Shown one piece after another: positions 2,820 to 26,468 of a DNA stretch of 38,295 nucleotides. The first letter of the stretch is position 1; each line of letters starts with the position of its first letter. Below the pieces are notes generated by a model that did not search any database, had not been told where the DNA came from, and saw only the letters and a list, made by a program, of their open reading frames with translations. Source of the DNA: Candidatus Aenigmatarchaeota archaeon (lineage in GTDB: Archaea; Aenigmatarchaeota; Aenigmatarchaeia; CG10238-14; SCSR01); assembly GCA_039091335.1 (NCBI GenBank), contig JAWCME010000003.1, forward strand, positions 1 to 38,295. Reading direction: 5' to 3'. The translations under genes and the position numbers were made by a program.

Positions 2820-5340
2820 TCAGCTTGGGGGCATTTCTAAACTAAGTATTTTTGACTCTGATTTTTCCATTGTAACACCATATATTACATCACCATACTT
2901 TATCATTTGCTCGTTGTGTGTTATTATCAAAAACTGTGCATCCTTAGAAAGTGATTTTATAAGTTCTGCAACCTTTTTTGTATTCTCTTTATCCAAGGCT
3001 GCATCTACTTCATCAAGAATGTAGAAGGGTGCGGGCTTAAATTGTTGAATCGCAAAAAGAAATGCAAGAGCAGTCAAACTCTTTTCTCCTCCAGAAAGAG
3101 AGTCTATGTTTGTTAGTGTTTTTCCTCCGGGGTTTGCTTGAATTATTAACCCAGAGTCTAAATTAAGGGGGTCTTCCAACTCCAGGCTTGCATTTCCATT
3201 TGTCATCCTATTAAACACTTCGTTGAATTGTTTGCTAACTTCTTTTAAACAGTTATTAAATACTTCCATTCTTTTTTCCTCTATTTTTTGTATCATGTCT
3301 AAAACTGCTTTTTTCTCTTCAAGTATTTTCTCATATTTTTCTTTGTAATTGTCAAACTCTGATTTGAATTTTTCATATTGCTCTATTGCCTTAAAGTTTA
3401 CTGGACCAAGAGACAAAAGCCCTTGCTGAACTTCCTTTGTTTCTTGTTCCAAAACCCTTATACTTTTATCCATCGGCTCAACACCCTCATACTGAAGTAG
3501 TTCAATTTTTAAATTTTCCAATTCGGTTTCAATCTTTGCTTTTTGTATTTTTAGTCTACCAACTTCTGTCTGAAGCTTATACATTCTTTCATAGATATTC
3601 TTTCTTTCAATCTTAAGTTTCTCCAACTCTGTTTCTGCCCCAAAGTTAAATTTTTTAAAATCCAAAAATTCTTTTGTTTTTTCCACCTTAGAATATTCTT
3701 CCAGTTTTCTTTTAGCTTCCTCATTCTCTTTTCTAATCCTTTCTATTTCTTTTTCAAGTGCTTCCTTTGTCTTTATATATTCTTCAATTTTATCTCTTCC
3801 AAATTGTCTTATCTTTTCTCTTATCAAATATCCCCCAGTCATCGCTCCACTTCTTTCTATCAAATCTCCGTCTAAAGTTACCATCCTTACTTTTCCAATT
3901 CCTATCGTTCTTGCAACTTCTAAGTCCTTTACAATAAGCGTGTTTCCAAGAACAAATTCAATAGCAGGTAAAAACTTTTTATCAAATTTAACAAGTTTTG
4001 ATGCTATTCCAAGCACTCCGTTTTTCTTCAACATTTCCTTTTCTTTCAGCTCCCTTGGTTTAATTTTATTAAGTGGTAAAAATGTTGCTCTTCCTATCTT
4101 CTCTCTTTTTAAAAACTCTATGCAAAATTTTGCGGTTTCTTCGTTGTCTACCACTATATCATTCAAATGTTGTCCCGCTGCAATTTCTATTGCAATCCTG
4201 TATTTTTCCGGAACCTTTATTATGCCCGCAATCGTACCAAAAACTCCCTTTAAATTTTGTTTAATTATTTCGTTCACACTTCTTGAAAACCTTTCTTTTA
4301 TATCTGTTTCTATATCATTTATCTCCTGAATTCTTTTTATTAGCTCATCAAGCCTTTCTATTTCCTTCTTGTTGAATTCAATTTTTGTTTCATTGGTCGA
4401 GATATTTATTCTTAGAAGTGATGCCTTCCTATCGACCTCTATCAAGTCTGAAAAATTTGAAAACTTTTCTAAAAATTCTTTTACCTTTTTTTCAGTTTCT
4501 TCTAGTCTATTTTCAATCTCCTTTGCTTTTTTTTCAAATTCCAATAATTCATTTTCTTTCTTTTGTATCTCTTCTTCTATTGTTTTTAAATTTTTTTCAA
4601 ACTCACAATATCTTTTATGAGCTAAGGATGCCTTCAAGATTATAAGCTGTCTTTGAAGGTTTTGATATTTGAGTGCTGCATTCCTTTCCTCCTCCAGTCT
4701 TTTGAAAGTATCATATCTTTCGGATATTATTATTTCTGCTTCCCTGAGTCTTGCGTCTACAGCCTCCAAATCCTTTTTTGCCTTTTCCCTCTTTTCATTG
4801 TACTCCGCTATTCCGGAGATTTCGTCTATTATTTGTCTTCTTTCTATCGGGTTCATTTCAATTATGTTTGTCACATCACCTTGCAGTATTATGTTATGAC
4901 CGTCTGGATAAATCCTTGCAGCCGATAAAAGTTCTAGAACCTTTTCTCTTGTTGTAGTCTTACCCTGAATTTTATATACACAAACCCCCTTTCTATTCAC
5001 TTTTCTTGTGATTGAAACCTCCTGATCGTCAAAAGGAAATATTTTGTTCGAATTATCGAGATATAACACTACAGAGGCGTATTGTGCTGGTGAACTCCCG
5101 TCGCCTCCATGATATATAAGTTCATGAAGTCTTTCTGCTCTTAAAGATTTGGCAGAAGTTCTACCTAGAACAAAGCAGATGGCGTCGCATAGATTAGATT
5201 TTGGCCTCAGTTTAACCCCTGAGCTTACCAACACCGTTCGGACCACAAACTATGTTAACGCCATTGGTAAGAGGGATAGATATTCTTTTGTTAAAGCTTT
5301 TAAACCCCTGCAATACTATCCTCAATATCGATGTTTTCAA
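2820..5340 (-). CDS. smc: Chromosome segregation protein SMC, two exons (5340-5225, 5199-2820), 831 aa after splicing
   Basis: TTG 5340 after AGGTGA; exon 1 encodes ...LQGFKSF...CGPNGVGK, exon 2 SNLCDAICFVLG; hinge GRATFLPL and GAMTGG; LSGGEK signature; Walker B ILDEVDAALD. Confidence 0.92.
5200..5224 (-). other. 25-nt BHB intron in smc mRNA
   Basis: UGGU-AA^G-CUCAG-GGGUUAAA-CUGAG-GCCA-AA^A; removal gives GGT AAA TCT (G-K-S) and joins the two frames. Confidence 0.88.
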
Positions 5341-5344
5341 TAAA

Positions 5345-5350
5345 TCACCT
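5345..5350 (-). promoter_or_regulatory. Shine-Dalgarno-like site for smc
   Basis: AGGTGA ends 4 nt before the TTG at 5340. Confidence 0.7.
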
Positions 5351-5488
5351 TCCTATATTAATATATTAATTTTTTCAATTAAATCAGAATGTAAATTTAG
5401 TTGAAATTTAAAGTTTATTTTTCTTTTAAATCTACCATGCTCAAAATTGCTAGAATTAAATTTTTTATTTAAAAACTTATTTTTAACT

Positions 5489-6322
5489 ATGCCTGCAAAT
5501 CTCCCTAGGGAATGGTTTATTTTGGAAGAAGAAATGAGAAATACTAAAAGCATTCAAGAAAAAATAGAAAAATTAGAAAGGCTTATTGCACTTACACCCA
5601 AGCATAAGGGAACTGAAAATTTAAGAGCGCAGTTGAACAAAAGATTGGCTAAGTTGAGAAATGAGATGGAAAAGAGTAGCAGGAAAGAGCACATAAAAAG
5701 TAAATTTGAAAAAAATGGTGATGTTTTGGTTTCTATACTCGGATTTACTCAAATAGGAAAAAGTACCTTGTTAAAAAATTTAACAAACGCCTCTGTAGAA
5801 ATAAGTAACAAACCTTATACAACAAAGGAAATTGAAAGTGGAATATGCAAATGGAATGGTGTAAGCATTCAGTTTGTCGAAATACCATCGTTTTTTCTTA
5901 AAAGGCACTTAGCTGTAGCAAAAACTTCTGATTTGTTGGTATTGCTGGTAAGAGACGAAGAAGATTTAAAAAAATTAGAATATATTTTAAATGAAAATAA
6001 TTTTGCAGAGAAGAAAAAAATAGTTTTATTTAGCAATTTTCTAAAAAATTTGTTTGAAGTAAAGGATTTTTCTGAATTTTTGAATAAAATCTTAGAAGAA
6101 GTAAATGTTTTTAGAATTTTTACAAAGCCACCAAAAAAAGAAGTTAGTAAGGATGCGCTAGTTTTTAAACTAAAACCAAAAGTTAGAGATGTTTTGAAAA
6201 GAATAAATGAAAGTTTTCTTGAAACCTTTAAATTTGCAAAAGTTTTTAGGAAAAAAGAAATTAAACGGGTTGGTCTGGATTATGAGCTTGAAGACGGAGA
6301 TATCATTGAAGTTCATGCTTAG
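5489..6322 (+). CDS. DRG/OBG-family GTP-binding protein with TGS domain (divergent)
   Basis: MPANLP, PKHKGTENLRAQL, GFTQIGKST, KPYTT, C-terminal RVGLDYELEDGDIIEVH. Confidence 0.85.
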   Translation: MPANLPREWFILEEEMRNTKSIQEKIEKLERLIALTPKHKGTENLRAQLNKRLAKLRNEMEKSSRKEHIKSKFEKNGDVLVSILGFTQIGKSTLLKNLTNASVEISNKPYTTKEIESGICKWNGVSIQFVEIPSFFLKRHLAVAKTSDLLVLLVRDEEDLKKLEYILNENNFAEKKKIVLFSNFLKNLFEVKDFSEFLNKILEEVNVFRIFTKPPKKEVSKDALVFKLKPKVRDVLKRINESFLETFKFAKVFRKKEIKRVGLDYELEDGDIIEVHA

Positions 6323-6350
6323 TTTTTTTTAAACATGCAATAAGTCTTTA

Positions 6351-6494
6351 TGGGCTCGGCGGGATTTGAACCCGCGACCATTCCCCCTTATCGAACGGGT
6401 TGCTTCCTGGTATCAAAGCTTTTAATAGATAAAAGCTTCAGCTAGTTCCGCTGCTTTCGGCTACATTTCATCTACCATGCTGAGCTACGAGCCC
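6351..6494 (-). tRNA. tRNA-Lys(UUU) with four BHB introns (6456-6471, 6437-6447, 6401-6429, 6381-6394)
   Basis: Acceptor GGGCTCG/CGAGCCC, T-arm GCGGG-TTCAAAT-CCCGC; removing 16+11+29+14 nt yields a 74-nt cloverleaf with arm GCGGG-CTTTTAA-CCCGT. Confidence 0.85.
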
Positions 6495-6981
6495 TCATTT
6501 TTTTTAGCAATTCCTTACATTTATCTTTTATCTTTTTATCGACTTTAATAAAAGCTATTCCTTTGTTTGGCAAACCGTAAACTATATTTGTTCCTATTCT
6601 TGATTTTAATGCAAAAGCAAAAGTTGCTAAATCTTCTTCACCCCTCACAAATATTTTAAACCTTCCTTTATCATCTAAAACTTTACTAACAACTTCGAGT
6701 AATTTTTTAGATATACATCTAGGAGGATTTTTAACCACAATTTTTTTAGCTTTATATTTTTCAATTTTTTTCAGCATTTTTTTACTTGTTTTTTTCCTTC
6801 CAATAATCCCATCATAAACTAAAATGTCTGGCTTAATTCCTAAAACTAATGCTTCATAACTTACCATATCACCAACAACTACAAGTTTGCCAGAAAATTC
6901 GATTTTGCTTAAAGAATTAAGTACTTTACCATAAATTTTTCTAAATTCTGGTTTTATTTTTTCGGTCAAAACTAAATCCAA
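6472..6981 (-). CDS. DUF359-family GTP-dependent dephospho-CoA kinase
   Basis: VVGDMVS, VYDGIIGR, VKNPPRCIS, VRGEEDLA, YGLPNKG. Confidence 0.85.
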   Translation of the reverse strand: MDLVLTEKIKPEFRKIYGKVLNSLSKIEFSGKLVVVGDMVSYEALVLGIKPDILVYDGIIGRKKTSKKMLKKIEKYKAKKIVVKNPPRCISKKLLEVVSKVLDDKGRFKIFVRGEEDLATFAFALKSRIGTNIVYGLPNKGIAFIKVDKKIKDKCKELLKKMRARSSAW

Positions 6982-6986
6982 CTTTA

Positions 6987-7192
6987 CTACCTTTTTCTAT
7001 TTCTTCTAAAATTGTGGGTTTGCCAAGAATACTTTTTTATTTTTGAGCTTTTTCCATAGCCACAAGCGCTACAAACTTTACTTTTTACATTAAAGCTACG
7101 CCTTCCACACCTTTTGTGTTTAGCTAAACTAATCTACACAAGGTGTGGACAGGTTTCCTTCTTTTACCCATTGAAGGCGTTCCTTTTGCCAT
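6987..7192 (-). CDS. rpl37e: 50S ribosomal protein L37e, two exons (7192-7134, 7113-6987), 61 aa after splicing; absent from ORF track
   Basis: Spliced product [61 protein letters not shown] matches the eL37 pattern. Confidence 0.93.
7114..7133 (-). other. 20-nt BHB intron in rpl37e mRNA
   Basis: GUGU-AG^A-UUAG-UUUAG-CUAA-ACAC-AA^A with complementary flanking exons; removal gives TGT AGA AGG TGT (CRRC). Confidence 0.9.
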
Positions 7193-7211
7193 GTTTTCCA
7201 CTAACTACTTT

Positions 7212-7844
7212 TTATATTTGATTTTTATAATAGTTTTGCATGTTTAAAATTTCAAATTCCTTTAAGATTTTATTCGCTCTTTCCAGGTCATCTTTTGTAT
7301 CTATATCGAAAAATTCGTTTGTAGGCATAGATATTGGTACAAACACCTTATTCTTGGATTTTTCAATTATTTCATTTAGATCTTTTTTCGGACCACAATT
7401 TTCAAAAATCTTCTTTTTATATATTCCACACAGCGTTTCATACTTATTTAATCCCCAAAAGTAGAGTATACAATCTACCATCTCTTTCGTCCTAGGTAAG
7501 AGCTCTCTTATTGTCCTATCCTGAACAAAAGGCATGTCGCACGCCAAAAGAAAGAAGTAATCGTTTTTAATATGTTTTATCCCTTCCTTTATTCCTGCTA
7601 CAGGAGAAAAAACCCTTTTGTTATCGGCAATAACCTTTACATTTTTCGAATATTTTCTAACTTCTTCTATAACTTTTTCTCTTTCTTCTCTATTTTTTAC
7701 AACAACCACAATATCAGAAAAAAAATTTTTTGCAACAAACAAAGAATATGCTATTAATGCTTTTTTGTCAAGAAGTACTAAAGCCTTTTCATTTTTCATC
7801 CCCCTTATTTTACCACCCGCGAGAATTATACAGCTAACCCCCAT
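7212..7844 (-). CDS. MobA-like NTP transferase
   Basis: IILAGG, SPVAGI, LACDMPF, FFDIDTKDDL. Confidence 0.8.
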   Translation of the reverse strand: MGVSCIILAGGKIRGMKNEKALVLLDKKALIAYSLFVAKNFFSDIVVVVKNREEREKVIEEVRKYSKNVKVIADNKRVFSPVAGIKEGIKHIKNDYFFLLACDMPFVQDRTIRELLPRTKEMVDCILYFWGLNKYETLCGIYKKKIFENCGPKKDLNEIIEKSKNKVFVPISMPTNEFFDIDTKDDLERANKILKEFEILNMQNYYKNQI

Positions 7845-7941
7845 TAAATCTTTTTTTGTAAATTAAATGCTATATTCTTTTCTTTTGAAATTTCTTGTTT
7901 TAACGTTAACAAATAAATTTTTCTGTATTAAAAAGTATTCC

Positions 7942-9093
7942 ATGGAATGGCAGGAAATTTTGGTAAGATATGGAGAAATATTCCTAAAATCGGAGTTTGT
8001 CAGAAGAGAATATGAAAGAAGGTTGGTGGAGAATATAAAACATGCGATTAAAAAAAAGAATATAGAATTTGAGATTTATAGGGAAAGGGGAAGGATTTTT
8101 ATTAAAACAAGAAAAATTTCTCCTGTTTGCAAAATCCTTAGAAAAATTTTTGGGATAATTTCTTTTTCTCCCTGCGTGCATTTGAAAACGGATAAAAAAG
8201 AGGAAATAGTTGATTTTTTTAAAAACAATTTCAATAGCTTTATAAAAAAAGGAAAGACTTTTGCCGTTTCCGTTAAAAGAGTTGGTAAACAAAATTACTC
8301 GAGTCAAGAATTGGCTAGAGATATAGGAAATGTTATTAAAAGAAGGGTTAATCTTTCAAATCCAGATGTAAAGATTTTTGTAGAAATAAGGGACGGAAAT
8401 ACTTACATATACACAAGAAAAATTAGGGGTTTGGGTGGAATGCCTGTTGGAAGTTCAGAAAAGGCTGTAGCTTTAATCTCTGGTGGCATAGACTCTCCTG
8501 TTGCCTCTTGGTTCGCAATGAAGAGGGGATGCAAAGTTGTTTTTGTTCATTTCCATAGCTTTCCACTTGTTTCAAGAAAAAGTATAGAAAAGACTAAAGA
8601 ATTGGTAAGGGTTTTGAATGAATATCAAGGGAGGAGTAAGCTTTATTTAATTCCTTTCTCAGAGATTCAGAGTAGGATAAAAACATCTGTGCCAGCAAAG
8701 TATAGAATAATATTCTATAGAAGGATGATGTTTAAAATTGCAGAATTAATTTCAAAGAAAGAAGGAGCAAAATCTTTAGTTACAGGCGAAAGCCTTGGTC
8801 AAGTTTCTTCACAGACATTGAGCAATATTGCTGTTATAGAAGAGGCAACAAAAATCCCTATATTGAGGCCATTAATCGGGATGGACAAATCTGAAATAAT
8901 TGAAATTGCAAAGAAAATAAAAACTTATGAAATATCAATAAGACCGCAAGAGGATTGTTGTACCCTATTTGTTCCAAAACACCCAACAACCAGGGCAAAA
9001 GAAGAATTGGTTAAAAAAATAGAAAGTAAGTTAAAAATGAAAAAAGAGGTCAAAGAAGCAATAAAGGGAGTTGAAGTTGTTTTTTATAAATAA
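7942..9093 (+). CDS. thiI: tRNA 4-thiouridine synthase ThiI
   Basis: VRYGEIFLKS, THUMP region, GLGGMPVGS, PP-loop SGGIDS, TGESLGQVSSQTL, EDCC. Confidence 0.95.
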   Translation: MEWQEILVRYGEIFLKSEFVRREYERRLVENIKHAIKKKNIEFEIYRERGRIFIKTRKISPVCKILRKIFGIISFSPCVHLKTDKKEEIVDFFKNNFNSFIKKGKTFAVSVKRVGKQNYSSQELARDIGNVIKRRVNLSNPDVKIFVEIRDGNTYIYTRKIRGLGGMPVGSSEKAVALISGGIDSPVASWFAMKRGCKVVFVHFHSFPLVSRKSIEKTKELVRVLNEYQGRSKLYLIPFSEIQSRIKTSVPAKYRIIFYRRMMFKIAELISKKEGAKSLVTGESLGQVSSQTLSNIAVIEEATKIPILRPLIGMDKSEIIEIAKKIKTYEISIRPQEDCCTLFVPKHPTTRAKEELVKKIESKLKMKKEVKEAIKGVEVVFYK

Positions 9094-9131
9094 AAAAATT
9101 TTTATTTTAATTTAACCTATTTTTAAATTCT

Positions 9132-9836
9132 ATGAGAGTATTGGAAGTAAATAATGTGACAAAAATATTCAAGAGCAACAGAAATGTTGTCGCACTCAAT
9201 AATATAAATCTTAAAATAGATGAAAAAGAGTTTTTTGGGTTACTTGGCCCGAATGGCGCTGGAAAAACAACCCTTCTAAACATAATATTAACTATAATAA
9301 TTCCTGATAAAGGAGAGGTTAAAATTTTTGGTAAAAACCCGTTTTTAGATGCTGAAGCTCTGCGAAAATTAAATTATGTTCCAGTAGAAAAACCATATTC
9401 TCATCTAAAGGTGAAAGACTTCTTGTATTGTTATGCAAAATTGTATGGAGTAGAAATAAAAAGAATAAAATATGTTATGAGAAAGTTTAAGCTTTCTAGC
9501 CTGAAAGAAAAGGAGTGTTGGACTCTATCTACGGGGGAGCTTAGTCGTGTTGCACTTGCTAAATCTCTTCTCAACAAACCAAAACTCTTGATTTTAGACG
9601 AGCCAACCTTTGGCCTTGACCCGAAAAACAAGATTGAAGTTCAAAAAACATTGAAAAAAATTAATAAAAATGGTACTACCATATTTTTTGCTACCCATGA
9701 TATGGTTGAGGCTGAGAGACTCGCTACTAAAGTAGCATTTATAAAATCCGGCAAAATTCTTGATGTTAGAGAAAAAAAAGAAATTGTTAAAAAATTTGGA
9801 AGTTTAGAAGAATACTGGATAAGGTTGGGAAAATGA
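9132..9836 (+). CDS. ABC transporter ATP-binding protein
   Basis: GPNGAGKTT, LSTGE, LILDEPT, THDM. Confidence 0.93.
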   Translation: MRVLEVNNVTKIFKSNRNVVALNNINLKIDEKEFFGLLGPNGAGKTTLLNIILTIIIPDKGEVKIFGKNPFLDAEALRKLNYVPVEKPYSHLKVKDFLYCYAKLYGVEIKRIKYVMRKFKLSSLKEKECWTLSTGELSRVALAKSLLNKPKLLILDEPTFGLDPKNKIEVQKTLKKINKNGTTIFFATHDMVEAERLATKVAFIKSGKILDVREKKEIVKKFGSLEEYWIRLGK

Positions 9837-10606
9837 ATATTTCAAGGATTGTAACACTTGTTAGAAGGGACTATTTGATGTTTATTAAATCTAAGTGGAG
9901 GTGGATGGAGTTTTTCTATTTTCCAATAACTTCTTTGATAATGTGGGGGATATTTACTCTATGGACAAGGGAATTTGCAAGTGTGGCTGGAAGAGTTGCG
10001 CTCGTAGTAAATGTTTTTTGGAGTTATGCCTATGTTGTTCAAAGCACCATAAATTTGAGTATTAACGAGGATGCATGGCATGGTGAGATTCATCATCTCT
10101 TTATTACTGGGATTGGGAAATGGGAATATTTGTTTGCAAGAATAGTATTTGGTGTTTTAGTTTCCTTTGCAAACCTTATTATAATGATTTTAATTATGCA
10201 CTTCCTATTCCTAAATATTTCGAGTATAGTATTTCCAATAATTTTGTTCTGTATATCAACTGCCTTTATTTCAGTTGCATTGGCAATTTTAATTACTGGC
10301 CTAATATTTATGCTTGGGAGAGATTTTACATGGCTCGCTTGGTCAGCTCTGCAGTTTTTTATCTTACTTTCTTTCCCTTTGGCGCCACTTGAAATTTTTC
10401 CTTATAACATTCAAACTATAGCAAAAGTTATGCCTTATGGAAATCTGTTTCAAAGTATAAGAAATTTAGTGATGTATAAGCCTTGGGTGGAGTATCTAAG
10501 GTCATCAGTTTTATTGGGTTTCGTATATCTTGTAATTTCTTTGTTTTTATACGATTTTGGGTTTGATTTTTCAAGAAAAACTGGGAAGTTTGCGAAGATG
10601 TTCTAA
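9833..10606 (+). CDS. ABC-2 type transporter permease
   Basis: About six hydrophobic segments; ATGA overlap with the ATPase gene. Confidence 0.85.
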   Translation: MNISRIVTLVRRDYLMFIKSKWRWMEFFYFPITSLIMWGIFTLWTREFASVAGRVALVVNVFWSYAYVVQSTINLSINEDAWHGEIHHLFITGIGKWEYLFARIVFGVLVSFANLIIMILIMHFLFLNISSIVFPIILFCISTAFISVALAILITGLIFMLGRDFTWLAWSALQFFILLSFPLAPLEIFPYNIQTIAKVMPYGNLFQSIRNLVMYKPWVEYLRSSVLLGFVYLVISLFLYDFGFDFSRKTGKFAKMF

Positions 10607-10707
10607 CTCGGCAATTGTTGTTTTTAATTTAAGAATAGATACGAAAATTAAATCGAACTTTACACCAGATGTAGTGGGATATGCAAAATCAAAATTAGTT
10701 TATTATA

Positions 10708-11325
10708 TCAAACTAGTTTCATCGCTTTATATAACATCTTTTCTAATTTCATTAACTTTCTTTGGTAAGAAGGAGTAGCAAGGTTTATGCTACTTTCTGG
10801 AACTTCTCTTGGAGCACCTAACATACTACTCGCAAAAAATTCTTTTCCATATCCCAGCTTAAGCAGCATTCTATCTGAGATGTACTTAACCATTTCCCAT
10901 CTTTTATCCCTTTTAACTTCTTCTTCAGTTCTAGGATCGCCTGCCAATAAGCATTCTATTTGATATTCTTTTCCCAAAATTTTTCTAGCGTCATAACTTA
11001 GTCTTGGAATATGCCAATAGTTTGAAATAGGACATACTTTATCTACATGCTCTAGAGAAGCAAGAAGAGAAAGTAACATCTTACAATAATATAAGTTAGA
11101 TAGTGTACTATAAGAGAATGGTTCTACCACAATTTTTTCTCTATCAACGCCTTTATTTACTATATAAAAAGTAATTGAATCTGCTTCATTTTTTCCACAA
11201 ACTATGAGCATGTCTACTATAGAAGTGCCATATGCTTCAATTGCTCTATCAGCCCTTGCTTTTGTATGAAGTTGTAAACTTCCGTCTGGATTAATACCAG
11301 CCCCATGAACTATTCCTACTTTCAT
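10708..11325 (-). CDS. YdcF/DUF218 (ElyC/SanA-like) protein
   Basis: VHGAG, ARADRA, IVCG, EPFSYSTLSN, SNYWHIPR. Confidence 0.8.
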   Translation of the reverse strand: MKVGIVHGAGINPDGSLQLHTKARADRAIEAYGTSIVDMLIVCGKNEADSITFYIVNKGVDREKIVVEPFSYSTLSNLYYCKMLLSLLASLEHVDKVCPISNYWHIPRLSYDARKILGKEYQIECLLAGDPRTEEEVKRDKRWEMVKYISDRMLLKLGYGKEFFASSMLGAPREVPESSINLATPSYQRKLMKLEKMLYKAMKLV

Positions 11326-11359
11326 GATATTATGAAAAATCTTAAAAGATTTAAATCTA

Positions 11360-11608
11360 TCATCTAGATTTCCAGCGCATAATCAGAAAGAAAGAGATTA
11401 TAACAATAAAGGAAAATAATATCATCCAAACAGAAAATTCAGGAATAGCTACTTGATATCCTGTAATAGAAGGTTGTTGTGAAATCCAAATAAATCTTCC
11501 TTGCAAAGAAGAAGCAAAGATTAAAGTAATAACTGATAATACAACTAAGGCTGAAGCTACTATACTTCTCTTATGAAATTTCCAAACTTCTTTTAATATT
11601 TCTTCCAT
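11360..11608 (-). CDS. Small membrane protein with PEF-CTERM-like tail
   Basis: N-terminal hydrophobic helix; IPEFS + TM helix + basic end RWKSR. Confidence 0.6.
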   Translation of the reverse strand: MEEILKEVWKFHKRSIVASALVVLSVITLIFASSLQGRFIWISQQPSITGYQVAIPEFSVWMILFSFIVIISFFLIMRWKSR

Positions 11609-12006: not shown

Positions 12007-12214
12007 ATTAGAAAATGGGGGCTTTAGAGAAAAATCTTTATACTTTTAAACTTTTCGTGAGAATTTTAAAATTTAAAATTATTCTACTCCTACAAGAGTA
12101 GCAACTATAATTTCTCTTAAGTTCAGTGATTGATAGCAATCTAGCTATGAATGAGTATAAATAAAACATATTATGACAGAAGGAAAAATAATAATTAGAA
12201 GGTAAGATGAGAAA

Positions 12215-15328: not shown

Positions 15329-15403
15329 TGGGGTTGCTGGGATTTGAACCCAGGTTTTGCGGGCCCAAGCCGCAAGGCCTAGACCAAACTAGCCGACAAC
15401 CCC
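15329..15403 (-). tRNA. tRNA-Pro(UGG), intronless
   Basis: GGGGTTG/CAACCCC acceptor; TGCGG-CTTGGGC-CCGCA anticodon arm; CTGGG-TTCAAAT-CCCAG T-arm; 75 nt. Confidence 0.95.
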
Positions 15404-15464: not shown

Positions 15465-15551
15465 TGGGGCTGCCGAGATTTGAACTCGGGTTGCCGGCAC
15501 CCCAAGCCGGAGTACTAGACCATTCTAGATTATTACCTATACTACAGCCCC
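15465..15551 (-). tRNA. tRNA-Pro(GGG) with ~12-nt D-loop intron (about 15523-15534)
   Basis: GGGGCTG/CAGCCCC; CCGGC-TTGGGGT-GCCGG; D-loop 12 nt longer than in the neighbouring tRNA-Pro, relaxed BHB. Confidence 0.9.
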
Positions 15552-15584
15552 AACATTATTTCTTTTGAAATTAAAATTTAAATT

Positions 15585-16859: not shown

Positions 16860-16861
16860 AA

Positions 16862-18442: not shown

Positions 18443-18498
18443 AATCAAACTTATTTTATCTTTTAAAACTTAAGTTTATGGATGGAATAAATTAAATT

Positions 18499-19344
18499 GT
18501 GAAAATATATCTTGGAAGTGCCGGTATACCTACAGTCTCAAAGGACAGAAGCACTATAGGAGGAATAAAATGTATCTCTGAGCTTGGTCTTTCGGCGCTT
18601 GAAGTTCAGTTTGTAAGAAGGGTTGCAATGAGTTCAGAAATTGCGAAGGAGGCAGGAAAACTTTCAAAGGATTTGAACATAAAATTATCTGTGCATGCTC
18701 CCTATGCAATAAACCTGTGCTCAGAGGAAATGAAAAAAGTAGAGGCGTCGAAGAATAGGATAATTGAATCAGCAGAAAAAGCAGATTTGATGAATGCTAA
18801 TATAGTAGTATTTCATCCAGGATATTATGGAAAGCTAAGTCCTGAGAGGGCAATAGAATCTGTAAAACAAGCATGCTCTGATATGGTAGAAGAGATGAAA
18901 TCAAAAGACATTGAAGTTAAGCTTGGTTTAGAAACAACAGGAAAACAAGCTGCCTTTGGAACCTTGGACGAGATAATAAATATTTGTAAGGAAGTTAAAG
19001 ATTGTCGTCCTGTAATAGATTTTGCTCATCTAAACTGTAGATGTGCCGGATGTTTAAGAAGGGAAGAAGATTATGCAAACATTTTTAAAAAATTGGAAAA
19101 AATTAAAATTGATTGTTTGCATACTCATTTTACATGTGCAGAATTTTCTGTTGTTGGGGTTGGAAAAGGGAATGAAAGATTTCATCTAGAGTTAAAAGAA
19201 AACAAGCCTCCTTTTGAACCTTTAGCAAAGGAAATTTTGAAAAGGAATATTGACATTACAATAATAAGTGAAAGCCCTATACTTGAACAAGATTCTTTGA
19301 AAATGAAAAAAATTTTTGAGGACTTAGGTTATAAATCAGAATAA
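18499..19344 (+). CDS. nfo: Endonuclease IV / AP endonuclease family 2
   Basis: SVHAPYAINL, VFHPG, LETTG, IDFAH, HTHF, ISESP. Confidence 0.88.
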   Translation: MKIYLGSAGIPTVSKDRSTIGGIKCISELGLSALEVQFVRRVAMSSEIAKEAGKLSKDLNIKLSVHAPYAINLCSEEMKKVEASKNRIIESAEKADLMNANIVVFHPGYYGKLSPERAIESVKQACSDMVEEMKSKDIEVKLGLETTGKQAAFGTLDEIINICKEVKDCRPVIDFAHLNCRCAGCLRREEDYANIFKKLEKIKIDCLHTHFTCAEFSVVGVGKGNERFHLELKENKPPFEPLAKEILKRNIDITIISESPILEQDSLKMKKIFEDLGYKSE

Positions 19345-19941
19345 TATATTGTTCTCTTCCAGCCCATGGTATAATCTTTTAATTACCTCTTCCATATATT
19401 CAATTCTTGGAGTAGGACAAACAAATTTCCCGTTTGAAAATAGCAATATGGTTAAATTATTCAATTTAAATATTCCTCCTGGAAATTGTTCTGGGTCATA
19501 AAAAAAATCAGGAGCAATTTCATTGATTTTTTCTAAATCAACTCTTCTATTTAAATATCCGCTTACCACAAAATTTACAACACTTGCCTTGGTTTCTATA
19601 TTTTTGGATGGAAAATGATTCGATAGTTTACTCTTCAAGTCTTCGTCCACTCTTCTCAATTCCTCTTCTGTTTTAAGTCCTGTGCATATGATGTTTGTTT
19701 TCCCCCCCCACCTTCTTTTGAAAATAACTGTTGTATATGGTGGATTTCCCCAACGAATAGAAATTGCCGGAAATGCTCTTCCATCAGGATTTTTTCTTTT
19801 CGTAGGTCTGTATTTTTCTATAATTTCTGCATTTTCTTTATCAGCAATTTCAAGAAGCCCGTAGACTAATTCATCGTTGTCAATTCCATTAAAATCTATC
19901 TTTCCAACAATGTTCACTACCCTATAAATGTATTTTTCCAT
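19336..19941 (-). CDS. tbp: Divergent TATA-binding protein family member
   Basis: Two repeats: VVNIVG...FPAI...VIF...ICTGLK and VVNFVVS...YDPEQFPG...LLFSNGK. Confidence 0.8.
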   Translation of the reverse strand: MEKYIYRVVNIVGKIDFNGIDNDELVYGLLEIADKENAEIIEKYRPTKRKNPDGRAFPAISIRWGNPPYTTVIFKRRWGGKTNIICTGLKTEEELRRVDEDLKSKLSNHFPSKNIETKASVVNFVVSGYLNRRVDLEKINEIAPDFFYDPEQFPGGIFKLNNLTILLFSNGKFVCPTPRIEYMEEVIKRLYHGLEENNILF

Positions 19942-19966
19942 ACTATTAACTATGAAAATAAAAAAT

Positions 19967-20635
19967 TTATATACTTTTTAAAATCTCCCTATAAAATTTT
20001 AATTTTTTGGGCTTGAGACCAAGAGTAAAGACAATACCAAAAACAAAACCTCCAACATGCGCCCAGAATGCCACATTACTTCCAGAAAAACCAAAAAAGC
20101 TTATAGTAGCAAAAACGAACTGTAAAACAAACCAAAAACCTATTACAATGTATGCTGGTATGTGGATAAAACTGTATCCGAACCTTGTTAGTATCATTTC
20201 TTTCGGAAAAATTAAAAAATAAGAACCTAATATTCCTGATACTGCGCCAGAAGCACCTATAGCAGGTATTTCTGACCCAATATTTGTTAAAAGGTGAAAA
20301 AAGGATGCAACAATTCCTGAGAAGAAATACAGAATAAGAAATTTCAATCTTCCAAACCTATCCTCTATATTGTCTCCAAAAATCCAAAGATACCACATAT
20401 TTCCAAATATATGGTCAAAACCACCATGTAAAAACATTGAAGTAAAGAGTGTTAGCAAAGATGGATGAGCAGGAATAAATCCAAAGCTAAGGATAAAAAA
20501 TTCAAAGTCTTGTAAGCTTAGAATAAACACAAAAACATTAAGAGTTATTAAAGTTATAGTAACTAAAGGAAACTTTCTTCTAGGTGCTGTATCAGAAAGA
20601 GGAAAAAACTGTCCTTTTCTGCTTTTAAAAAACAT
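19967..20635 (-). CDS. Rhomboid intramembrane serine protease
   Basis: SMFLHGG, HIFGNM, GASGA, WAHVGG. Confidence 0.95.
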   Translation of the reverse strand: MFFKSRKGQFFPLSDTAPRRKFPLVTITLITLNVFVFILSLQDFEFFILSFGFIPAHPSLLTLFTSMFLHGGFDHIFGNMWYLWIFGDNIEDRFGRLKFLILYFFSGIVASFFHLLTNIGSEIPAIGASGAVSGILGSYFLIFPKEMILTRFGYSFIHIPAYIVIGFWFVLQFVFATISFFGFSGSNVAFWAHVGGFVFGIVFTLGLKPKKLKFYREILKSI

Positions 20636-20785
20636 AAATAGAATTGTCCTTTTCTTAATTTATATCTTTCATTTCTCTTACTAAACTCCTTTCTCCTATA
20701 CTAAAAAAATATTAAAAATTTGGAAGAAAATTTAATAAAATAAAAGGTTTAAAAATTTTTAATATTAAAATTTATTAGTGAAAAA

Positions 20786-21091
20786 ATGGAAGAAAAGGTT
20801 AAACTTACACAAAGATTGTTTCTAGACATACTAAGGGATACGGGCTATGCACCAGACCCAGAGCTTGTCAGAAAAGTAGCAGAAAACAATAGCTTATCAA
20901 ACTTGAAAAAAACCTACGAACTTTTAAAATATTTGAATACTCCTGTCCTAGAATTTAGGGAAGGAAGAGAAAAAATAGTAGCTAGAGCTATGTGCTACTA
21001 TGTTTCAATGGCAATCGATGAAACTGGAAAAATACTGTCAATGAATATCTACAACTATAAGCCAAACGAAAGGATAAGAATTGTTAGGTAA
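20786..21091 (+). CDS. Hypothetical protein
   Basis: 101-codon ORF after an AT-rich intergenic region; no motif recognised. Confidence 0.6.
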   Translation: MEEKVKLTQRLFLDILRDTGYAPDPELVRKVAENNSLSNLKKTYELLKYLNTPVLEFREGREKIVARAMCYYVSMAIDETGKILSMNIYNYKPNERIRIVR

Positions 21092-21103
21092 TTTTTTTTC
21101 TTT

Positions 21104-21886
21104 TTATACAACTCCAACCAACACTTCTTCCTCTAAATTTTTTGGAATTTCATCTTTTAGAATGTTGTGAAGACAGTACGAAAAAACCAAAGAAGTTTGC
21201 ATTGGACCATGTTTATTGATATAATTAGAGATTGTTTTTATGAGTGGTTGTCTATATATTATTTTTTCTTGAATTATTTCAGGGAAGAATCTGCTCTTAA
21301 GAACCTCTGCATGTCCTTTATAGAGAATTTCATAATCTTCAGTTTCAATAACATGTGGTAGAATTGGTTGTACAAGCTCTAAATAAGCAAAAACCATATT
21401 TGCCCTTTTTATCGGATTGGTTTCGATAATACATGCCCTGGGTATTTTTTCACATTTTTCTACAATTTCTCTGGTTTTAAAAGCGAAGTCTTTTGGGTCT
21501 TGTCCACCATACTTACAGCTATTCCTTACGGATGTACTAATATAAAGATCACCCGTAGCAACTTCAAGTAGAAATGAATCTACTATTGTAATCATCCAAG
21601 GTGGCATTCTTTTATATCTTTCTAATTCCCAGCTTACTGTTTTTAGTCCTTTCATCCTTTTTATCATATTTTTTCTTTCCTCTTTGTATCGCGATGTTGG
21701 ATCAATATACCTATCAAGCTGGTTTAAATTGCTCCTGATTTCGTCAATATTGGATTTAATTATAAGCGGGTTGCGATTGTTAAATTCTTGATATTTTTTT
21801 GAGAGTATAGATAGGGTAGTCGCATATAGAGTTTCTTCATGGAATGGGTCATACTCTCCAATTCGCATATAACCTACTTCTTTCAT
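21104..21886 (-). CDS. Hypothetical protein
   Basis: 260-codon ORF; no motif recognised. Confidence 0.65.
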   Translation of the reverse strand: MKEVGYMRIGEYDPFHEETLYATTLSILSKKYQEFNNRNPLIIKSNIDEIRSNLNQLDRYIDPTSRYKEERKNMIKRMKGLKTVSWELERYKRMPPWMITIVDSFLLEVATGDLYISTSVRNSCKYGGQDPKDFAFKTREIVEKCEKIPRACIIETNPIKRANMVFAYLELVQPILPHVIETEDYEILYKGHAEVLKSRFFPEIIQEKIIYRQPLIKTISNYINKHGPMQTSLVFSYCLHNILKDEIPKNLEEEVLVGVV

Positions 21887-21966
21887 AAAAATTTATTTTT
21901 AATCTTTGTCAACTTTTTAAATAAAATTTGAAAACTATTTATTTTTTTAATTTCGTTAATTAATCG

Positions 21967-23427
21967 ATGAACTCTAGCTTGGGTCGAATCAGAGAAAGTC
22001 CGCAATACCTTAAATATAGATTTAAGCAGGAAGAGATTCTAAACAAACTTTCATCACAGCTTGAAAACATTGCTTCTGAAGCATACTCCAGAATAAAAAG
22101 GGAAAGGAAGATCTTTAAGCTATACTGTATAATAGAGCTACCGATACCAAAAGACGATAGAAAAATCCTTGGAAATTTTCCTACAAAACTTTTTGAATTG
22201 TCTTTACCAACAGTAGAAAAAATAGAACTACCAAGTAGGGAGTGGAGAGATTTTTCCATCTATAGGTTTGGATTACAATCGTATATTCAAAACAAGGAGG
22301 ACATAATAACACTTTTAGGTCTAATTCTCGAAAATGAAAGATTAAATTATTTGCCGTTTATTGGTTCAGAAGTAGGAATTTCTCATTCTTCTGAAGGAAA
22401 AACAAGTGTGTATTCTTATCATAGACTTGCTTCCACCACATTTAAAAAAGAAAGATTTCAACCTCCATTTAAAGATCTTTTTGAATTTCTTCCATATTAT
22501 CTTTCTGTGGTTGATAGTGGAAAAATGTTCATAAAAGAGTTATATGATAGAAGAAACTTGGCTGTGTGCAGAATGTCAGAAGGACTTGTTTGGATAAGGA
22601 GAACAAGAAATGGAAAAGATATTCGCATTAACAGTCCAGATGAAATTACTGATGATTTGGTACCGTGGGGGGCATTCGAATTTTTTGTTGAAGATAACAA
22701 ATGCTGGTTGGAAAAAACGAACTGTAGTGAATGCGATAAATTGTGTTTTCCAAACGTTTGTTTTGATTTAGATCCAGGAGAAAAAATTGAGAGAGAAAAA
22801 TGCATTCATGTGCTAACGCTAATTCAAAAATTTTTGGAAGATAAAGGAATTCATTATGTCATAAAACACACAGGAGGAAGGGGTTATAACATAGATATTT
22901 TTATAAAAAACTTCACTCCTCCAGAGGCTGGAGTATACATTCCATTGAATGTTTTGAAGCATCAAAGAGAAATGTCTTCAAAGAGGATGAAAGAGATAAT
23001 AGAAGAAAAGGCATATAATCCATATGATGTAATAAGAGATTTTGTAAGGATGATAACCGATTATTTAAGGGGCGATTTGGATTTCCTTGTTCATGATATG
23101 TCTAGTTCTGCATGGCAATTGAATACAATAACCGTAGATGCAGGGAGCATTAAGAGAAGGTCCTACCATAAGGCATACTATACATTAACAGAGAAAAAAA
23201 CAATGTGTCTTCCTATTTCCCCTGAGACAAATAAGGAAGAGATTAAAAAAATAGACGAAATTTCAAAAAAATTTTCAGATATAGGAGAATATCTAGATCA
23301 ATTGCCTTATGTTGAGATAAAATACATTGATTCGACCTTTATAAGAGATTTTATTGAAGACGAGGAAAGAAGGTTGTATAAAGAGCTTTATGATGATTGT
23401 TTGAGAAGATTAAGGTTTTTGGGTTGA
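21967..23427 (+). CDS. Archaeo-eukaryotic primase superfamily protein, LigD-polymerase-like domain with unknown N-terminal region
   Basis: LVPWGAFEF, CFDLDPG (DxD), KHTGGRGYNI (motif II region), ITVD (possible motif III). Confidence 0.7.
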   Translation: MNSSLGRIRESPQYLKYRFKQEEILNKLSSQLENIASEAYSRIKRERKIFKLYCIIELPIPKDDRKILGNFPTKLFELSLPTVEKIELPSREWRDFSIYRFGLQSYIQNKEDIITLLGLILENERLNYLPFIGSEVGISHSSEGKTSVYSYHRLASTTFKKERFQPPFKDLFEFLPYYLSVVDSGKMFIKELYDRRNLAVCRMSEGLVWIRRTRNGKDIRINSPDEITDDLVPWGAFEFFVEDNKCWLEKTNCSECDKLCFPNVCFDLDPGEKIEREKCIHVLTLIQKFLEDKGIHYVIKHTGGRGYNIDIFIKNFTPPEAGVYIPLNVLKHQREMSSKRMKEIIEEKAYNPYDVIRDFVRMITDYLRGDLDFLVHDMSSSAWQLNTITVDAGSIKRRSYHKAYYTLTEKKTMCLPISPETNKEEIKKIDEISKKFSDIGEYLDQLPYVEIKYIDSTFIRDFIEDEERRLYKELYDDCLRRLRFLG

Positions 23428-23443
23428 GTTTAAAAGAATTAAA

Positions 23444-23546
23444 AGTTGGTACGAGGTTTAGATTTTTTTGACTTTCAGAGGTTTCCGAAGAAACTCTCGA
23501 AAGTCGCTGTAGCAAATGCTACATCTAAACTTCCTCCCAACTACAA
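23444..23546 (-). ncRNA. Candidate structured ncRNA (three-way junction), family unknown
   Basis: Nested inverted repeats; C(UUCG)G tetraloop on the minus strand; BRE/TATA-like box upstream; T-run at 3' end. Confidence 0.5.
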
Positions 23547-23566
23547 CTTAAATTTAAATTAACTTA

Positions 23567-23580
23567 CTTATAAACTTTTC
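23567..23580 (-). promoter_or_regulatory. BRE + TATA-like box upstream of the candidate ncRNA
   Basis: Minus strand GAAAAG-TTTATAAG, about 25 nt before the first paired base. Confidence 0.4.
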
Positions 23581-23624
23581 CTTTATATTTATTCTAAATT
23601 TTTTAGAAAAAATAAAAAAATATT

Positions 23625-24047
23625 ATGAAAAAATTTGAATTTGTTGACATAACAACAGCTGATGTAGCGTTTAGGGCATATGGAAAAAGCTTGGAAGAAC
23701 TTTTTGAAAATGCTGCTTTGGCTATGTTTGAAGTTGTTGTTGACACTAAGAAAATTGAGCCATTGGTAGAGAAAAAGTTAAAGGTAGATGGAATTGATTT
23801 AAAGTCTTTATTGTTCAATTGGTTAAATGAACTGCTTATATTTGTGGATTCAGAAAATCTCGCTTTTTCTCAATTCAAGGTTAAAATAGACAAAGAAAAA
23901 ATGAGCTTAGAGGCTGTTTGTAAAGGAGAAAAAATAGACAGAAAAAAACATGAAACAAGAACGAATGTTAAAGCTGCAACATATCATAAAATGGAAGTTG
24001 AGAAAATGGGAGAAATTTTTTATGCACAAGTAATTTTAGATATTTAA
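23625..24047 (+). CDS. Archease (RtcB cofactor)
   Basis: TADVAFRAYGKSLEELFENAA, WLNELL, VKAATYH, terminal LDI. Confidence 0.95.
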   Translation: MKKFEFVDITTADVAFRAYGKSLEELFENAALAMFEVVVDTKKIEPLVEKKLKVDGIDLKSLLFNWLNELLIFVDSENLAFSQFKVKIDKEKMSLEAVCKGEKIDRKKHETRTNVKAATYHKMEVEKMGEIFYAQVILDI

Positions 24048-24120
24048 TTTATCTTGTTTTTGAAATAAACAAGTTTTTCATACATTAAAATGTTTTAAAT
24101 GGGAATTGTAGAAAAAGGCA

Positions 24121-24257
24121 TGCCCCCACCGGGATTTGAACCCGGGTTTGCTGGAGAACTCTCAGCCTTTCATCTTTTTTTCAAACCTTTCGAAATCAAT
24201 CGAAAGGGCTGCATCCTTGACCGGATTTTCCTGGCAGACCATCTAGACTATGGGGGC
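24121..24257 (-). tRNA. tRNA-Glu(UUC) with three introns (24219-24236, 24169-24200, 24148-24160)
   Basis: GCCCCCA/TGGGGGC acceptor; removing 18+32+13 nt gives a 74-nt cloverleaf with CAGCC-CTTTCGA-GGCTG. Confidence 0.88.
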
Positions 24258-24314
24258 TTTTAAATCTAATAGTTTTAAAAATAATTAAACTTTTTTAAAA
24301 TTTAATTATTTTAA

Positions 24315-24929
24315 TTATGTTTTTGTTAGCTCACCTGATACTATTTTCCAAATCTTCTCATGATTCTCTGTTATATCTTTTGAGCCATCTATAACAAACC
24401 ACTTTACCTCTTTATCTTTTCTAACAATGTCTAGATAAGCCATTCTTATTTCTTCCATAGTTTCTTTTTCCCTCTGTAACCTTTCCAAAATTTCTCCCTT
24501 TGTAAAATCTTCTATAGTTAATTGTTGAATTCTTTGAATACTTATTTCAATAGGCACATCTATCAAGAAACCTATATGCGGTTTAATGTTGAGTTTCTCT
24601 ATGCATATTAACCATTCTAATGGTACACCTTTAACTTTTTGATGCACAAAATTGCTGTAACAGTATCTATTACACAGCACTATTGTTCCTTTTTCTAGAA
24701 ACGATTTTATCCTTTCTTGACTTCTTGTTCTATCGGCTGCAAAAAGAAGGGATTGAGTAATCGGATCAAATTCTATTCTTCTTGTTAATCTTGCGATTTC
24801 ACCATCATAATCAGGAAAGCTAATAATCGTTACTTCTCTTCCAATGCCTTTAAGCCTCTCTGCTAATAATTTTATGTGTGTTTTCTTTCCAGCTCCTATT
24901 ATTCCTTCGAAAACAATAAATAAACTCAT
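24315..24929 (-). CDS. tmk: Thymidylate kinase family protein
   Basis: FIVFEGIIGAGKKT, SFPDY, LLFAADR, CNRY, IDGSK. Confidence 0.8.
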   Translation of the reverse strand: MSLFIVFEGIIGAGKKTHIKLLAERLKGIGREVTIISFPDYDGEIARLTRRIEFDPITQSLLFAADRTRSQERIKSFLEKGTIVLCNRYCYSNFVHQKVKGVPLEWLICIEKLNIKPHIGFLIDVPIEISIQRIQQLTIEDFTKGEILERLQREKETMEEIRMAYLDIVRKDKEVKWFVIDGSKDITENHEKIWKIVSGELTKT

Positions 24930-25025
24930 TAAAAAAAGGTTGTGTTCTCTGTTTTTAAGTTTTTAAAATTTAAATAAAAAAATTTAGAAAAAAACGGCAA
25001 ATTTCTATTAAAATTAAAGGTATTA

Positions 25026-25125
25026 TGGGCGAGGCCGGATTTGAACCGGCGACCGTTCCCGGTAAAACTCTCGGTTATCAGCCGATTAAGCTAATTGTGC
25101 TCCAACCAGGCTGAGCTACTCGCCC
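25026..25125 (-). tRNA. tRNA-Ile(GAU) with two non-canonical introns (25086-25096, 25056-25069)
   Basis: GGGCGAG/CTCGCCC; removing 11+14 nt gives CTCGG-CTGATAA-CCGAG arm and a 75-nt cloverleaf. Confidence 0.92.
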
Positions 25126-25182
25126 GTAAATAAAATATGAATCAAGATTAAATTTAAGCTTTTATTGTTTTTGGTTATTAAT

Positions 25183-26313
25183 ATGAGAAAAGTTGGAATA
25201 GCAGAGCTCCCGCTTCATTGGGGAAATGCTCCTAAGTGGTTGTTTGATAGAATGGTTAAACTGGGGAGTAAAATAACTGAAACTATTGTTTTTGAATATG
25301 GAATTGAAGAATTTCTTCGAAGGCTTTCTAATCCGTTTTGGTTTCAATCCTTTTCATGTGTTTTGGGTTGGGACTATCATTCTAGTGGCTCAACCACTGT
25401 ATTAACTGCAGTTCTCAAAGATGCTATCAACCCACAAAAATTTGGGCTTGGAATAGCAGGAGGGAAGGGAAAAGCAAGCAGAAAAACACCAGAAGAGATA
25501 AAAAAAATTGGAGAAGATTTTTCACTCTCTAGCTCAAAAATTGAAAAATTGGTTTATTCAAGTAAGATGTCAGCTAAAATTGATAATGTTGCGATTCAGT
25601 CCGACTATCATTTATACCATCATTCTTTCTTCTTCACAGAAAAGGGAAAATGGGTAGTGATTCAGCAAGGTATGGATGTTAATACGCAAACTGCTAGGCG
25701 CTATCACTGGTTCTCTGAAGAAATGAAATCTTTTGTGGAAGAGCCGCATTCAGCAATTTGTTGTGATTTAAAAAAAGAAAATGTTTTAGACATGACATCA
25801 AGAAAAAGCGAGGAAGCAAGGAAGGTTTCTTTAGATTTAGTTAAAGAAGGGCCAAGAAGAGTTAAAAACGATTTACTCTCTTTAAGACCAGTTTATCAAA
25901 AAAACTTATCGGAATTTATTCCAACTAAAACAAAAAAGGATTTTGTGACCTACATTTTAAAGATGCCCAGGAAGGTTAATTGGAAGGTTTTAGAAAAAGC
26001 TTATAATTTTCAACCAAGAAATTATGAAGAACTTTTAGGAATAGAGGGAATTGGTCCTAGCACAGTAAGAGGATTGGCACTAATTTCTGAAATAATTTAT
26101 GGTTCTCCTCCAAGCTGGAAAGACCCTGTGAAATTTAGCTTTGCTTATGGAGGAAAAGATGGTGTGCCTAAGCCTGTAAACAGAAAAAGTATGGACGAAT
26201 CAATAAATTTTTTAGAGGAAATTCTAAAACAAGCTGAAATAGAAAAGAGAGAAAAGTTAGAGGCTTTAAAAAGGTTAAAAAATATTATACCAAACAAACA
26301 AATTCTGGAGTAA
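25183..26313 (+). CDS. DUF763 family protein
   Basis: LPLHWGNAPKWL, WDYHSSGSTT, YHLYHH, QQGM, ARRYHW, HhH-like GIGPSTVR, GGKDGVP. Confidence 0.9.
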   Translation: MRKVGIAELPLHWGNAPKWLFDRMVKLGSKITETIVFEYGIEEFLRRLSNPFWFQSFSCVLGWDYHSSGSTTVLTAVLKDAINPQKFGLGIAGGKGKASRKTPEEIKKIGEDFSLSSSKIEKLVYSSKMSAKIDNVAIQSDYHLYHHSFFFTEKGKWVVIQQGMDVNTQTARRYHWFSEEMKSFVEEPHSAICCDLKKENVLDMTSRKSEEARKVSLDLVKEGPRRVKNDLLSLRPVYQKNLSEFIPTKTKKDFVTYILKMPRKVNWKVLEKAYNFQPRNYEELLGIEGIGPSTVRGLALISEIIYGSPPSWKDPVKFSFAYGGKDGVPKPVNRKSMDESINFLEEILKQAEIEKREKLEALKRLKNIIPNKQILE

Positions 26314-26347
26314 ATTATAATATTTTTTCTACTAATCCTATTCACAT

Positions 26348-26366
26348 CGAAAAATTTATTTATATA
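26348..26366 (+). promoter_or_regulatory. BRE/TATA-like promoter of tRNA-Ala
   Basis: CGAAAAATTTATTTATATA 20-38 nt upstream of the tRNA 5' end. Confidence 0.5.
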
Positions 26367-26385
26367 CTATTTTATCTATAAATGT

Positions 26386-26468
26386 GGGCTCGTAGTCTAA
26401 TGGCAAAGACGCTGTCTTCGCAACTTTGGAAAAGACAGAGACTCCGGGTTCGAATCCCGGCGAGTCCA
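26386..26468 (+). tRNA. tRNA-Ala(CGC) with 10-nt canonical 37/38 intron (26423-26432)
   Basis: G3:U70 pair (GGGCTCG/CGAGTCC); CTGTC-TTCGCA^A-GACAG; BHB helix UUCG/UGGA. Confidence 0.95.

Follow-up and report, generated by a model that had tools for sequence, protein, structure and literature searches.

Candidate bulge-helix-bulge micro-introns in tRNA genes and core protein genes of an Aenigmatarchaeota archaeon

How could an archaeon with a very small genome produce its SMC protein and its ribosomal protein L37e when the gene for each is broken by an insert of 20-25 nucleotides (nt)? The question is raised by the first 38,295 bases of contig C23 (JAWCME010000003.1) of a Candidatus Aenigmatarchaeota archaeon, a stretch referred to here as the window. 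The contig belongs to a metagenome bin (GCA_039091335.1, G000) of 569,737 bases in 29 contigs, with a completeness of 87%, a contamination of 1.1% and a G+C content of about 32%, and the window carries an archaeal gene set (SMC/ScpA/ScpB, TBP, an aEF-like GTPase, eRF1, S8e, Hjc and archease). We propose that the 13 inserts recognised in the window, including those in smc and rpl37e, are probably archaeal bulge-helix-bulge (BHB) introns spliced by the EndA/RtcB pathway. The production of SMC and L37e most likely depends on the tRNA-splicing machinery, because predicted excision rebuilds GPNGVGK|SN in the one and LCR|RCG in the other and restores the reading frame. The features of the two genes are as follows.

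5225..5340, minus strand: smc exon 1, TTG start, 38 codons plus 2 nt, ending ...VCGPNGVGK and aligning with the N-termini of the SMC of relatives
5200..5224, minus strand: candidate smc BHB intron, 25 nt, in the Walker A motif
2820..5199, minus strand: smc exon 2, SNLCDAICFVLG... to the stop, with SMC_N and hinge
7134..7192, minus strand: rpl37e exon 1, MAKGTPSMGKRRKPVHTLC plus AG, Pfam L37e positions 2-19
7114..7133, minus strand: candidate rpl37e BHB intron, 20 nt, within the CRRCG zinc knuckle
6987..7113, minus strand: rpl37e exon 2, A plus RCGRRSFNVKSKVCSACGYG... to the stop, Pfam L37e positions 19-50

The original prediction, made from the letters of the window, had placed both inserts in conserved motifs and noted in-frame stops, which are indeed read in both. 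Unspliced, the frame of smc exon 1 continues into LRG and a stop that lies within the insert. The insert is laid out as UGGU AA^G CUCAG GGGUUAAA CUGAG GCCA AA^A, and its excision joins GGU AA|A UCU AAU, which reads G-K-S-N and restores both the frame and the Walker A motif exactly, with ...NGVGK-SNLCDAICFVLGR as the predicted protein across the junction. In the minimum-energy fold the central helix has five pairs (the four template pairs of UGGU/GCCA and one flanking pair), with an AAG bulge and an inner stem of 5 base pairs (bp). The sequence obtained by removal is the ancestral one, since GPNGxGKSN stands unbroken in the SMC loci of relatives (27 of 29) and of named metagenome-assembled genomes (MAGs; six of seven).

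The rpl37e gene was found only by reading the small frames in the gap 6981-7212. Its unspliced frame MAKGTPSMGKRRKPVHTLCR meets an in-frame stop and a second frame reads ...KRCGRRSFNVKSKVCSACGYG..., while splicing of the insert, laid out as GUGU AG^A UUAG UUUAG CUAA ACAC AA^A with an outer helix CACACC/GGUGUG, would give LC-R-RCG in a protein of 61 residues, with frame and CRRCG motif restored exactly. The centroid fold is a textbook full hBHBh' (z -4.77; none of 200 shuffles folds equally well). Across the family, every full-length L37e match has ...CRRCG... unbroken; apart from these there are a copy truncated by a contig end in G012, where an unbroken copy is present too, and one shorter match. 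A shared rpl37e intron in G012 and G013, where the matches are partial, was rejected, as these matches are cut off by contig ends.

Structures of this kind seldom arise by chance: a 4-bp helix together with an inner stem of 4 bp or more was formed at the frame-restoring register by 0.05-0.16% of 300,000 random or shuffled inserts of the same length per gene (smc and rpl37e). Scans of the window for frame-restoring BHB inserts by motif only returned hundreds to thousands of matches in this AT-rich DNA and did not locate the second mRNA intron. Group I and group II introns are ruled out by insert lengths of 10-32 nt, and no Rfam intron family was found in the window. An intein identity (in-frame Hint domain, +1 Cys or Ser, terminal Asn) is likewise ruled out for the two protein-gene inserts, which are 20-25 nt long and carry stops.

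The same build is found in the tRNA genes of the window. Parsing with the BHB template (a 4-bp helix flanked by one 3-nt bulge per strand, the cut falling behind the second nucleotide of the bulge), adjusted by hand where one helix pair mismatched, recovered 11 introns, 10-32 nt long, from five of the six tRNA genes, four of them in Lys, three in Glu, two in Ile and one each in Pro(GGG) and Ala.

6351-6494, minus strand: tRNA-Lys(UUU), introns 6456-6471 (16 nt), 6437-6447 (11), 6401-6429 (29) and 6381-6394 (14)
15329-15403, minus strand: tRNA-Pro(UGG), intron-free
15465-15551, minus strand: tRNA-Pro(GGG), one D-loop intron 15523-15534 (12 nt)
24121-24257, minus strand: tRNA-Glu(UUC), introns 24217-24234 (18 nt), 24169-24200 (32) and 24148-24160 (13)
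25026-25125, minus strand: tRNA-Ile(GAU), introns 25086-25096 (11 nt, at 27/28) and 25056-25069 (14 nt, at 43/44)
26386-26468, plus strand: tRNA-Ala(CGC) with G3:U70, intron 26423-26432 (10 nt, at 37/38)

By hand parse the BHB helix has all four pairs in seven of these introns and three of four in the other four. After scripted intron removal all five tRNAs are canonical by ARAGORN, at 73-75 nt and with the anticodons UUU, GGG, UUC, GAU and CGC. On the raw DNA, Rfam and ARAGORN report six tRNA-like genes, of which only tRNA-Pro(UGG) is clean; two intron-bearing tRNAs appear only as weak tmRNA-like matches and one is misnamed. ARAGORN on raw DNA misses tRNA-Lys and labels tRNA-Ala as Arg or Leu, and the gene called Arg is tRNA-Ala by its G3:U70 pair and by the anticodon CGC that is read once the 10-nt intron is excised. 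The junction register of tRNA-Ile is independently checked, since contig C18 of the same bin carries an intron-free tRNA-Ile with which the spliced form can be aligned gaplessly, the differences lying in paired positions. All 13 introns claimed originally (11 in five tRNAs, two in protein genes) were re-derived in this way; the AA ending of most of them holds, and the count rises from 11 to 12 of 13 in our register. The original prediction had further pointed to the likeness between the smc site and intron 1 of tRNA-Lys (UGGU AG^A...GCCG AA^A) and proposed that introns spread from tRNAs into mRNAs. Both strings are literally present; the letters they share are forced by pairing with the common exon word UGGU and by the AA bulge, so the likeness was rejected as a sign of common origin and lends the proposed spread no support.

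Are further protein genes interrupted in this manner? We scanned the genome for BHB inserts that end in AA and join a short exon in an intergenic gap to another open frame. The scan ranked rpl37e and smc among its top matches, and four further protein-gene introns, each located at a conserved motif, were accepted, bringing the total to six in 570 kb.

C1:83461-83484: candidate aIF5A intron, 24 nt, in the hypusine loop (...STSG|KHGAAK)
C1:30935-30955: candidate TyrRS intron, ...EPSG|IAHLG (HIGH motif)
C28:369-384: candidate Kae1 intron, ...GIESTA|HTFG
C25:27102-27117: candidate Sec61-beta intron, ...GGL|IRY

The family models cross the in-frame inserts of aIF5A and TyrRS, which hold one TGA each, and begin directly after the insert in Kae1 and Sec61-beta; all four inserts fold as a BHB or as its bulge-helix-loop variant. 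The expectation that the build shared by tRNAs and essential protein genes would recur across the genome is therefore borne out, by four cases from a restricted scan. The density extrapolated from two cases in 38 kb was an overestimate, with six found in 570 kb, and six is a lower bound because the scan misses introns that lie between two long exons. A second scan without the AA requirement, confined to gaps, yielded no candidate convincing by eye among the best 45 of 220. Several pairs were rejected as intron cases on the ground that they are adjacent separate genes, namely Nop10 and its neighbour, L21e/RpoF, S14 and its neighbour, glutaredoxin/thioredoxin reductase, and the ends of Rpr2 and aIF2-beta.

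The aIF5A insert allows a comparison between genera. The gene is unbroken in 33 of the 34 relatives with a match, and the exception is G023, a member of another genus, in which the match starts at model position 35. There (G023:C45, about 6612-6670; L099 413-470) a 28-nt insert occupies the identical GGU AA^ site, against 24 nt here; the helix and the bulges are the same, and the inner stem is different and longer in G023. This putative intron, kept across genera with a changed stem, is the sole comparative sign of structural constraint.

Two components of the predicted pathway are encoded in the assembly. RtcB is present on C25:37091-37729 (locus 37091-37747), where the contig breaks off behind model position 209 of 426; the remainder of rtcB was not found elsewhere in the assembly. 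Archease, the RtcB cofactor family, is encoded in the window at 23625-24047 on the plus strand (PF01951, E 5.8e-46), 74 nt from the three-intron tRNA-Glu, an adjacency that had been pointed out originally. As to the nuclease, EndA is present in 20 of 20 relatives searched, mostly as a single frame of about 180-236 residues. The EndA of one relative (L003) is colinear with the alpha4 enzyme of M. jannaschii (1a79, residues 24-191) but for six residues (YERGVKLKRGPKAPHEH) inserted between its catalytic Tyr and His, about the insert length of the ARMAN-2 enzyme (4fz2). The subunit type of the relatives, which it had been suggested to classify, would thus be alpha4-like with an added loop, and we infer that the Tyr-His insert of L003 corresponds to the 'L3' loop of Kaneta 2018. 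In its available text that study describes the ARMAN-2 EndA as a broad-specificity enzyme and reports that an alpha4-type EndA with an added loop in DPANN goes with more tRNA gene disruption (PMC5829648). In the L003 locus (G006:C14) the open frame that precedes EndA has a translation resembling that of a tRNA gene (..GGVAQPGRATE..), so a tRNA may lie directly 5' of endA.

We propose a model that most reasonably fits these observations. The primary transcript would fold such that two 3-nt bulges flank a 4-bp helix, and EndA, in this lineage presumably an alpha4-like enzyme with an extra basic loop beside the active site, would cleave each strand behind the second nucleotide of its bulge. RtcB, aided by archease, would then join the exons. 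The outcome would be canonical cloverleaves in the tRNAs and in-frame rebuilding of the two interrupted motifs in smc and rpl37e, with the same dependence on splicing for at least aIF5A, TyrRS, Kae1 and Sec61-beta, and unspliced mRNA would be expected to give only truncated peptides.

A number of observations weigh against this model. The endA gene was not found in the 87%-complete assembly, whether searched with the Pfam model, whatever the threshold, or with a relative's protein in tblastn. For this reason the broad-specificity endonuclease that had been proposed rests on the relatives: their alpha4-like EndA with its six-residue insert agrees with the proposal, and a gene in the organism's own assembly does not appear, so that the presence of endA and rtcB, offered as a check, held for rtcB (a contig-end fragment, with archease) and gave no match for endA in this incomplete assembly. 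The smc motif is of the relaxed HBh' form, with a poor 3' bulge and a weak outer helix, and its fold is only modestly above shuffles (z about -2; 5-8 of 200 shuffles fold equally well). Neither insert has comparative support of its own, the smc intron being present in 0 of 36 SMC loci of relatives and the rpl37e intron in 0 of the 51 other family genomes having an L37e match (69 others searched). A second, uninterrupted rpl37e lies in the bin on contig C8 (8.6 kb), so the window copy could be dispensable. Finally, the window stretch is contained in no run on record as RNA, and no spliced smc or rpl37e joint is among the joints listed, meaning that mRNA splicing was not seen. A contig of run X6 (depth 36) does join 6471 to 6380 via 20 letters, the reverse complement of which is exactly the predicted exons 2-4 of tRNA-Lys, and this joint is absent from three DNA runs (among the joints listed). 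The contig fits a mature tRNA-Lys, and a close relative with an intron-free gene would give the same picture; because X6, whose library text reads 'metatranscriptomic', is flagged as probably DNA, the contig may be just such a gene.

Much of this would also be expected if the smc and rpl37e inserts were recent inactivating insertions, that is, young pseudogenes with BHB-like inserts that are inefficiently spliced, the copy on C8 covering for rpl37e and smc being lost. Neither insert recurs in any other genome examined, an intact rpl37e is in the bin, the smc motif is relaxed, and spliced mRNA was not observed. We nevertheless consider this explanation unlikely, as each gene has a single lesion, each lesion is BHB-shaped and excisable to ancestral codons, the same pattern is seen in six essential genes, scpA and scpB beside smc are intact, and the aIF5A intron has been kept across genera with a changed stem. 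The copy on C8 may moreover be that of another organism, since this contig, syntenic with the window (ABC transporter pair, L37e and a multi-intron tRNA-Lys of 189 nt), has only about 60-80% protein identity to it. A second small contig, C18 (4.1 kb), duplicates the window tRNA-Ile and tRNA-Ala at lower identity, and the two contigs would be either a co-binned relative or a diverged duplication. Such duplicates in a 29-contig metagenome bin could also suggest that the inserts are artefacts of assembly or binning, such as chimeric joins or mis-assembled repeats. This is extremely improbable: contigs from separate DNA runs span the smc insert (X2, 5150-6000) and the rpl37e insert (X3, 6941-7501) with no differing letters and no gaps, and a specific structure is found in the inserts at the positions that restore the frame. 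The DNA runs containing the window stretch carry the label hot-springs metagenome.

If the inserts are spliced introns, as we favour, splicing could, as the original prediction suggested, double as a regulatory switch, for example by coupling the synthesis of translation proteins and chromosome proteins to EndA/RtcB activity. The host genes act in translation (aIF5A, TyrRS, L37e, Kae1), secretion and chromosome segregation, and unspliced messages would hit early stops. However, stops would be expected by chance in AT-rich 20-25-mers, and the introns are lineage-specific, with close relatives differing in them, for which reason selfish or neutral gain fits better than a conserved control circuit; we give the switch little credence. 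Another tentative reading, which we hold to be rather doubtful, is that of a recent burst of mobile BHB micro-introns of 16-28 nt into the best-conserved motifs of proteins (P-loop, zinc knuckle, hypusine loop, HIGH motif), these being homing-type selfish elements or derived from such. Their origin could lie in introns that once bore an endonuclease and were stripped down to remnants, or in insertion by the EndA/RtcB reaction running in reverse, and they would persist since losing them imprecisely from sites of this sort is lethal. One of them, the putative smc intron, is at the GK|SN site that appears to be occupied by LAGLIDADG inteins in relatives. Three SMC loci (L050 of G006, L051 of G023 and L084 of an Aenigmatarchaeota MAG) hold an insert ending ...VHN|SN, with LAGLIDADG-like motifs in L050 and L051, the L084 insert having been read only at its end; these are putative inteins at the same site (window 5199/5225), offset by 1 nt at the DNA level. 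Like the window insert they would be selfish inserts in the same gene that are removed after transcription, but removal of an intein is at the protein level and involves about 430-550 residues (by frame length), whereas the smc insert is a 25-nt RNA with no coding capacity. If the homing-type reading is true, essential gene expression in a 0.6-Mb genome would have become dependent on the tRNA-splicing machinery. The SMC frame of G036 is similarly long (1352 aa).

The spliced-intron model has precedents in other systems. A BHB intron in the cbf5 pre-mRNA of Crenarchaeota was reportedly described by Watanabe in 2002 and by Yoshinari in 2006. According to the available text of Yokobori 2009 (PMC2738675), cbf5 of Crenarchaeota carries a short BHB or relaxed-BHB intron that has been gained and lost among related lineages, and within the accessible portions of the literature searched no other archaeal protein gene is described as having a BHB intron. 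The likeness to our cases lies in a short BHB or relaxed BHB in a coding gene, presumed in the accounts available to be cut by the tRNA-splicing endonuclease and then re-ligated. The cases differ in host genes (smc, rpl37e, aIF5A, TyrRS, Kae1 and Sec61-beta), in phylum (DPANN instead of Crenarchaeota), in that several genes of a single 0.57-Mb genome are interrupted, and in the endonuclease of the lineage, which is probably alpha4-like instead of heterotetrameric. The tRNA genes resemble those of Thermoproteales and DPANN, in which multiple introns at non-canonical positions are linked to EndA loop insertions in the available text of Kaneta 2018 (PMC5829648); in those groups, as far as that text goes, and here, up to four introns per tRNA are found at D-arm, anticodon-stem and variable-region positions. 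Archaeal tRNA intron lengths are quoted as 11-175 nt in the portion of Yokobori 2009 (PMC2738675) at hand, whereas the introns here go down to 10 nt and nearly all of those in the window end in AA.

Outside the archaea, unconventional splicing of the HAC1/XBP1 mRNA proceeds by IRE1 cutting and joining by tRNA ligase or RtcB, and acts as a stress-regulated switch. It shares with our model spliceosome-free mRNA splicing at stem-loops, joining by a tRNA-type ligase and a frame-changing removal, and differs in being a stress-regulated step and in its nuclease, the place of IRE1 being one that EndA would take here. The mechanism proposed here appears to be the known BHB/EndA/RtcB pathway, extended to several essential mRNAs of one tiny genome. 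If at least six core genes indeed need tRNA-type splicing, EndA, RtcB and archease would together form a system of mRNA maturation that this organism cannot do without. Genes with such introns are broken up or given wrong labels by the usual gene callers and tRNA finders, and DPANN surveys that count 'frameshifts' or 'missing tRNAs' may be counting introns. A 2026 preprint on Nanobdellota, in the part available, treats genes that are split or truncated as assembly frameshifts and leaves introns out of account.

At 779-1534 of the window, on the minus strand, a Pelota/eRF1-like frame of 251 aa matches eRF1 domain 2 only, and domain 3 does not follow before the next gene. In the TBP gene (19336-19941, minus strand) Pfam matches the second repeat only; the first repeat reads ..VIFKRRWGGKTNIICTG.., where other TBPs have the shorter ..IFxSGKxVCTG.., and its DNA includes a run of eight G.

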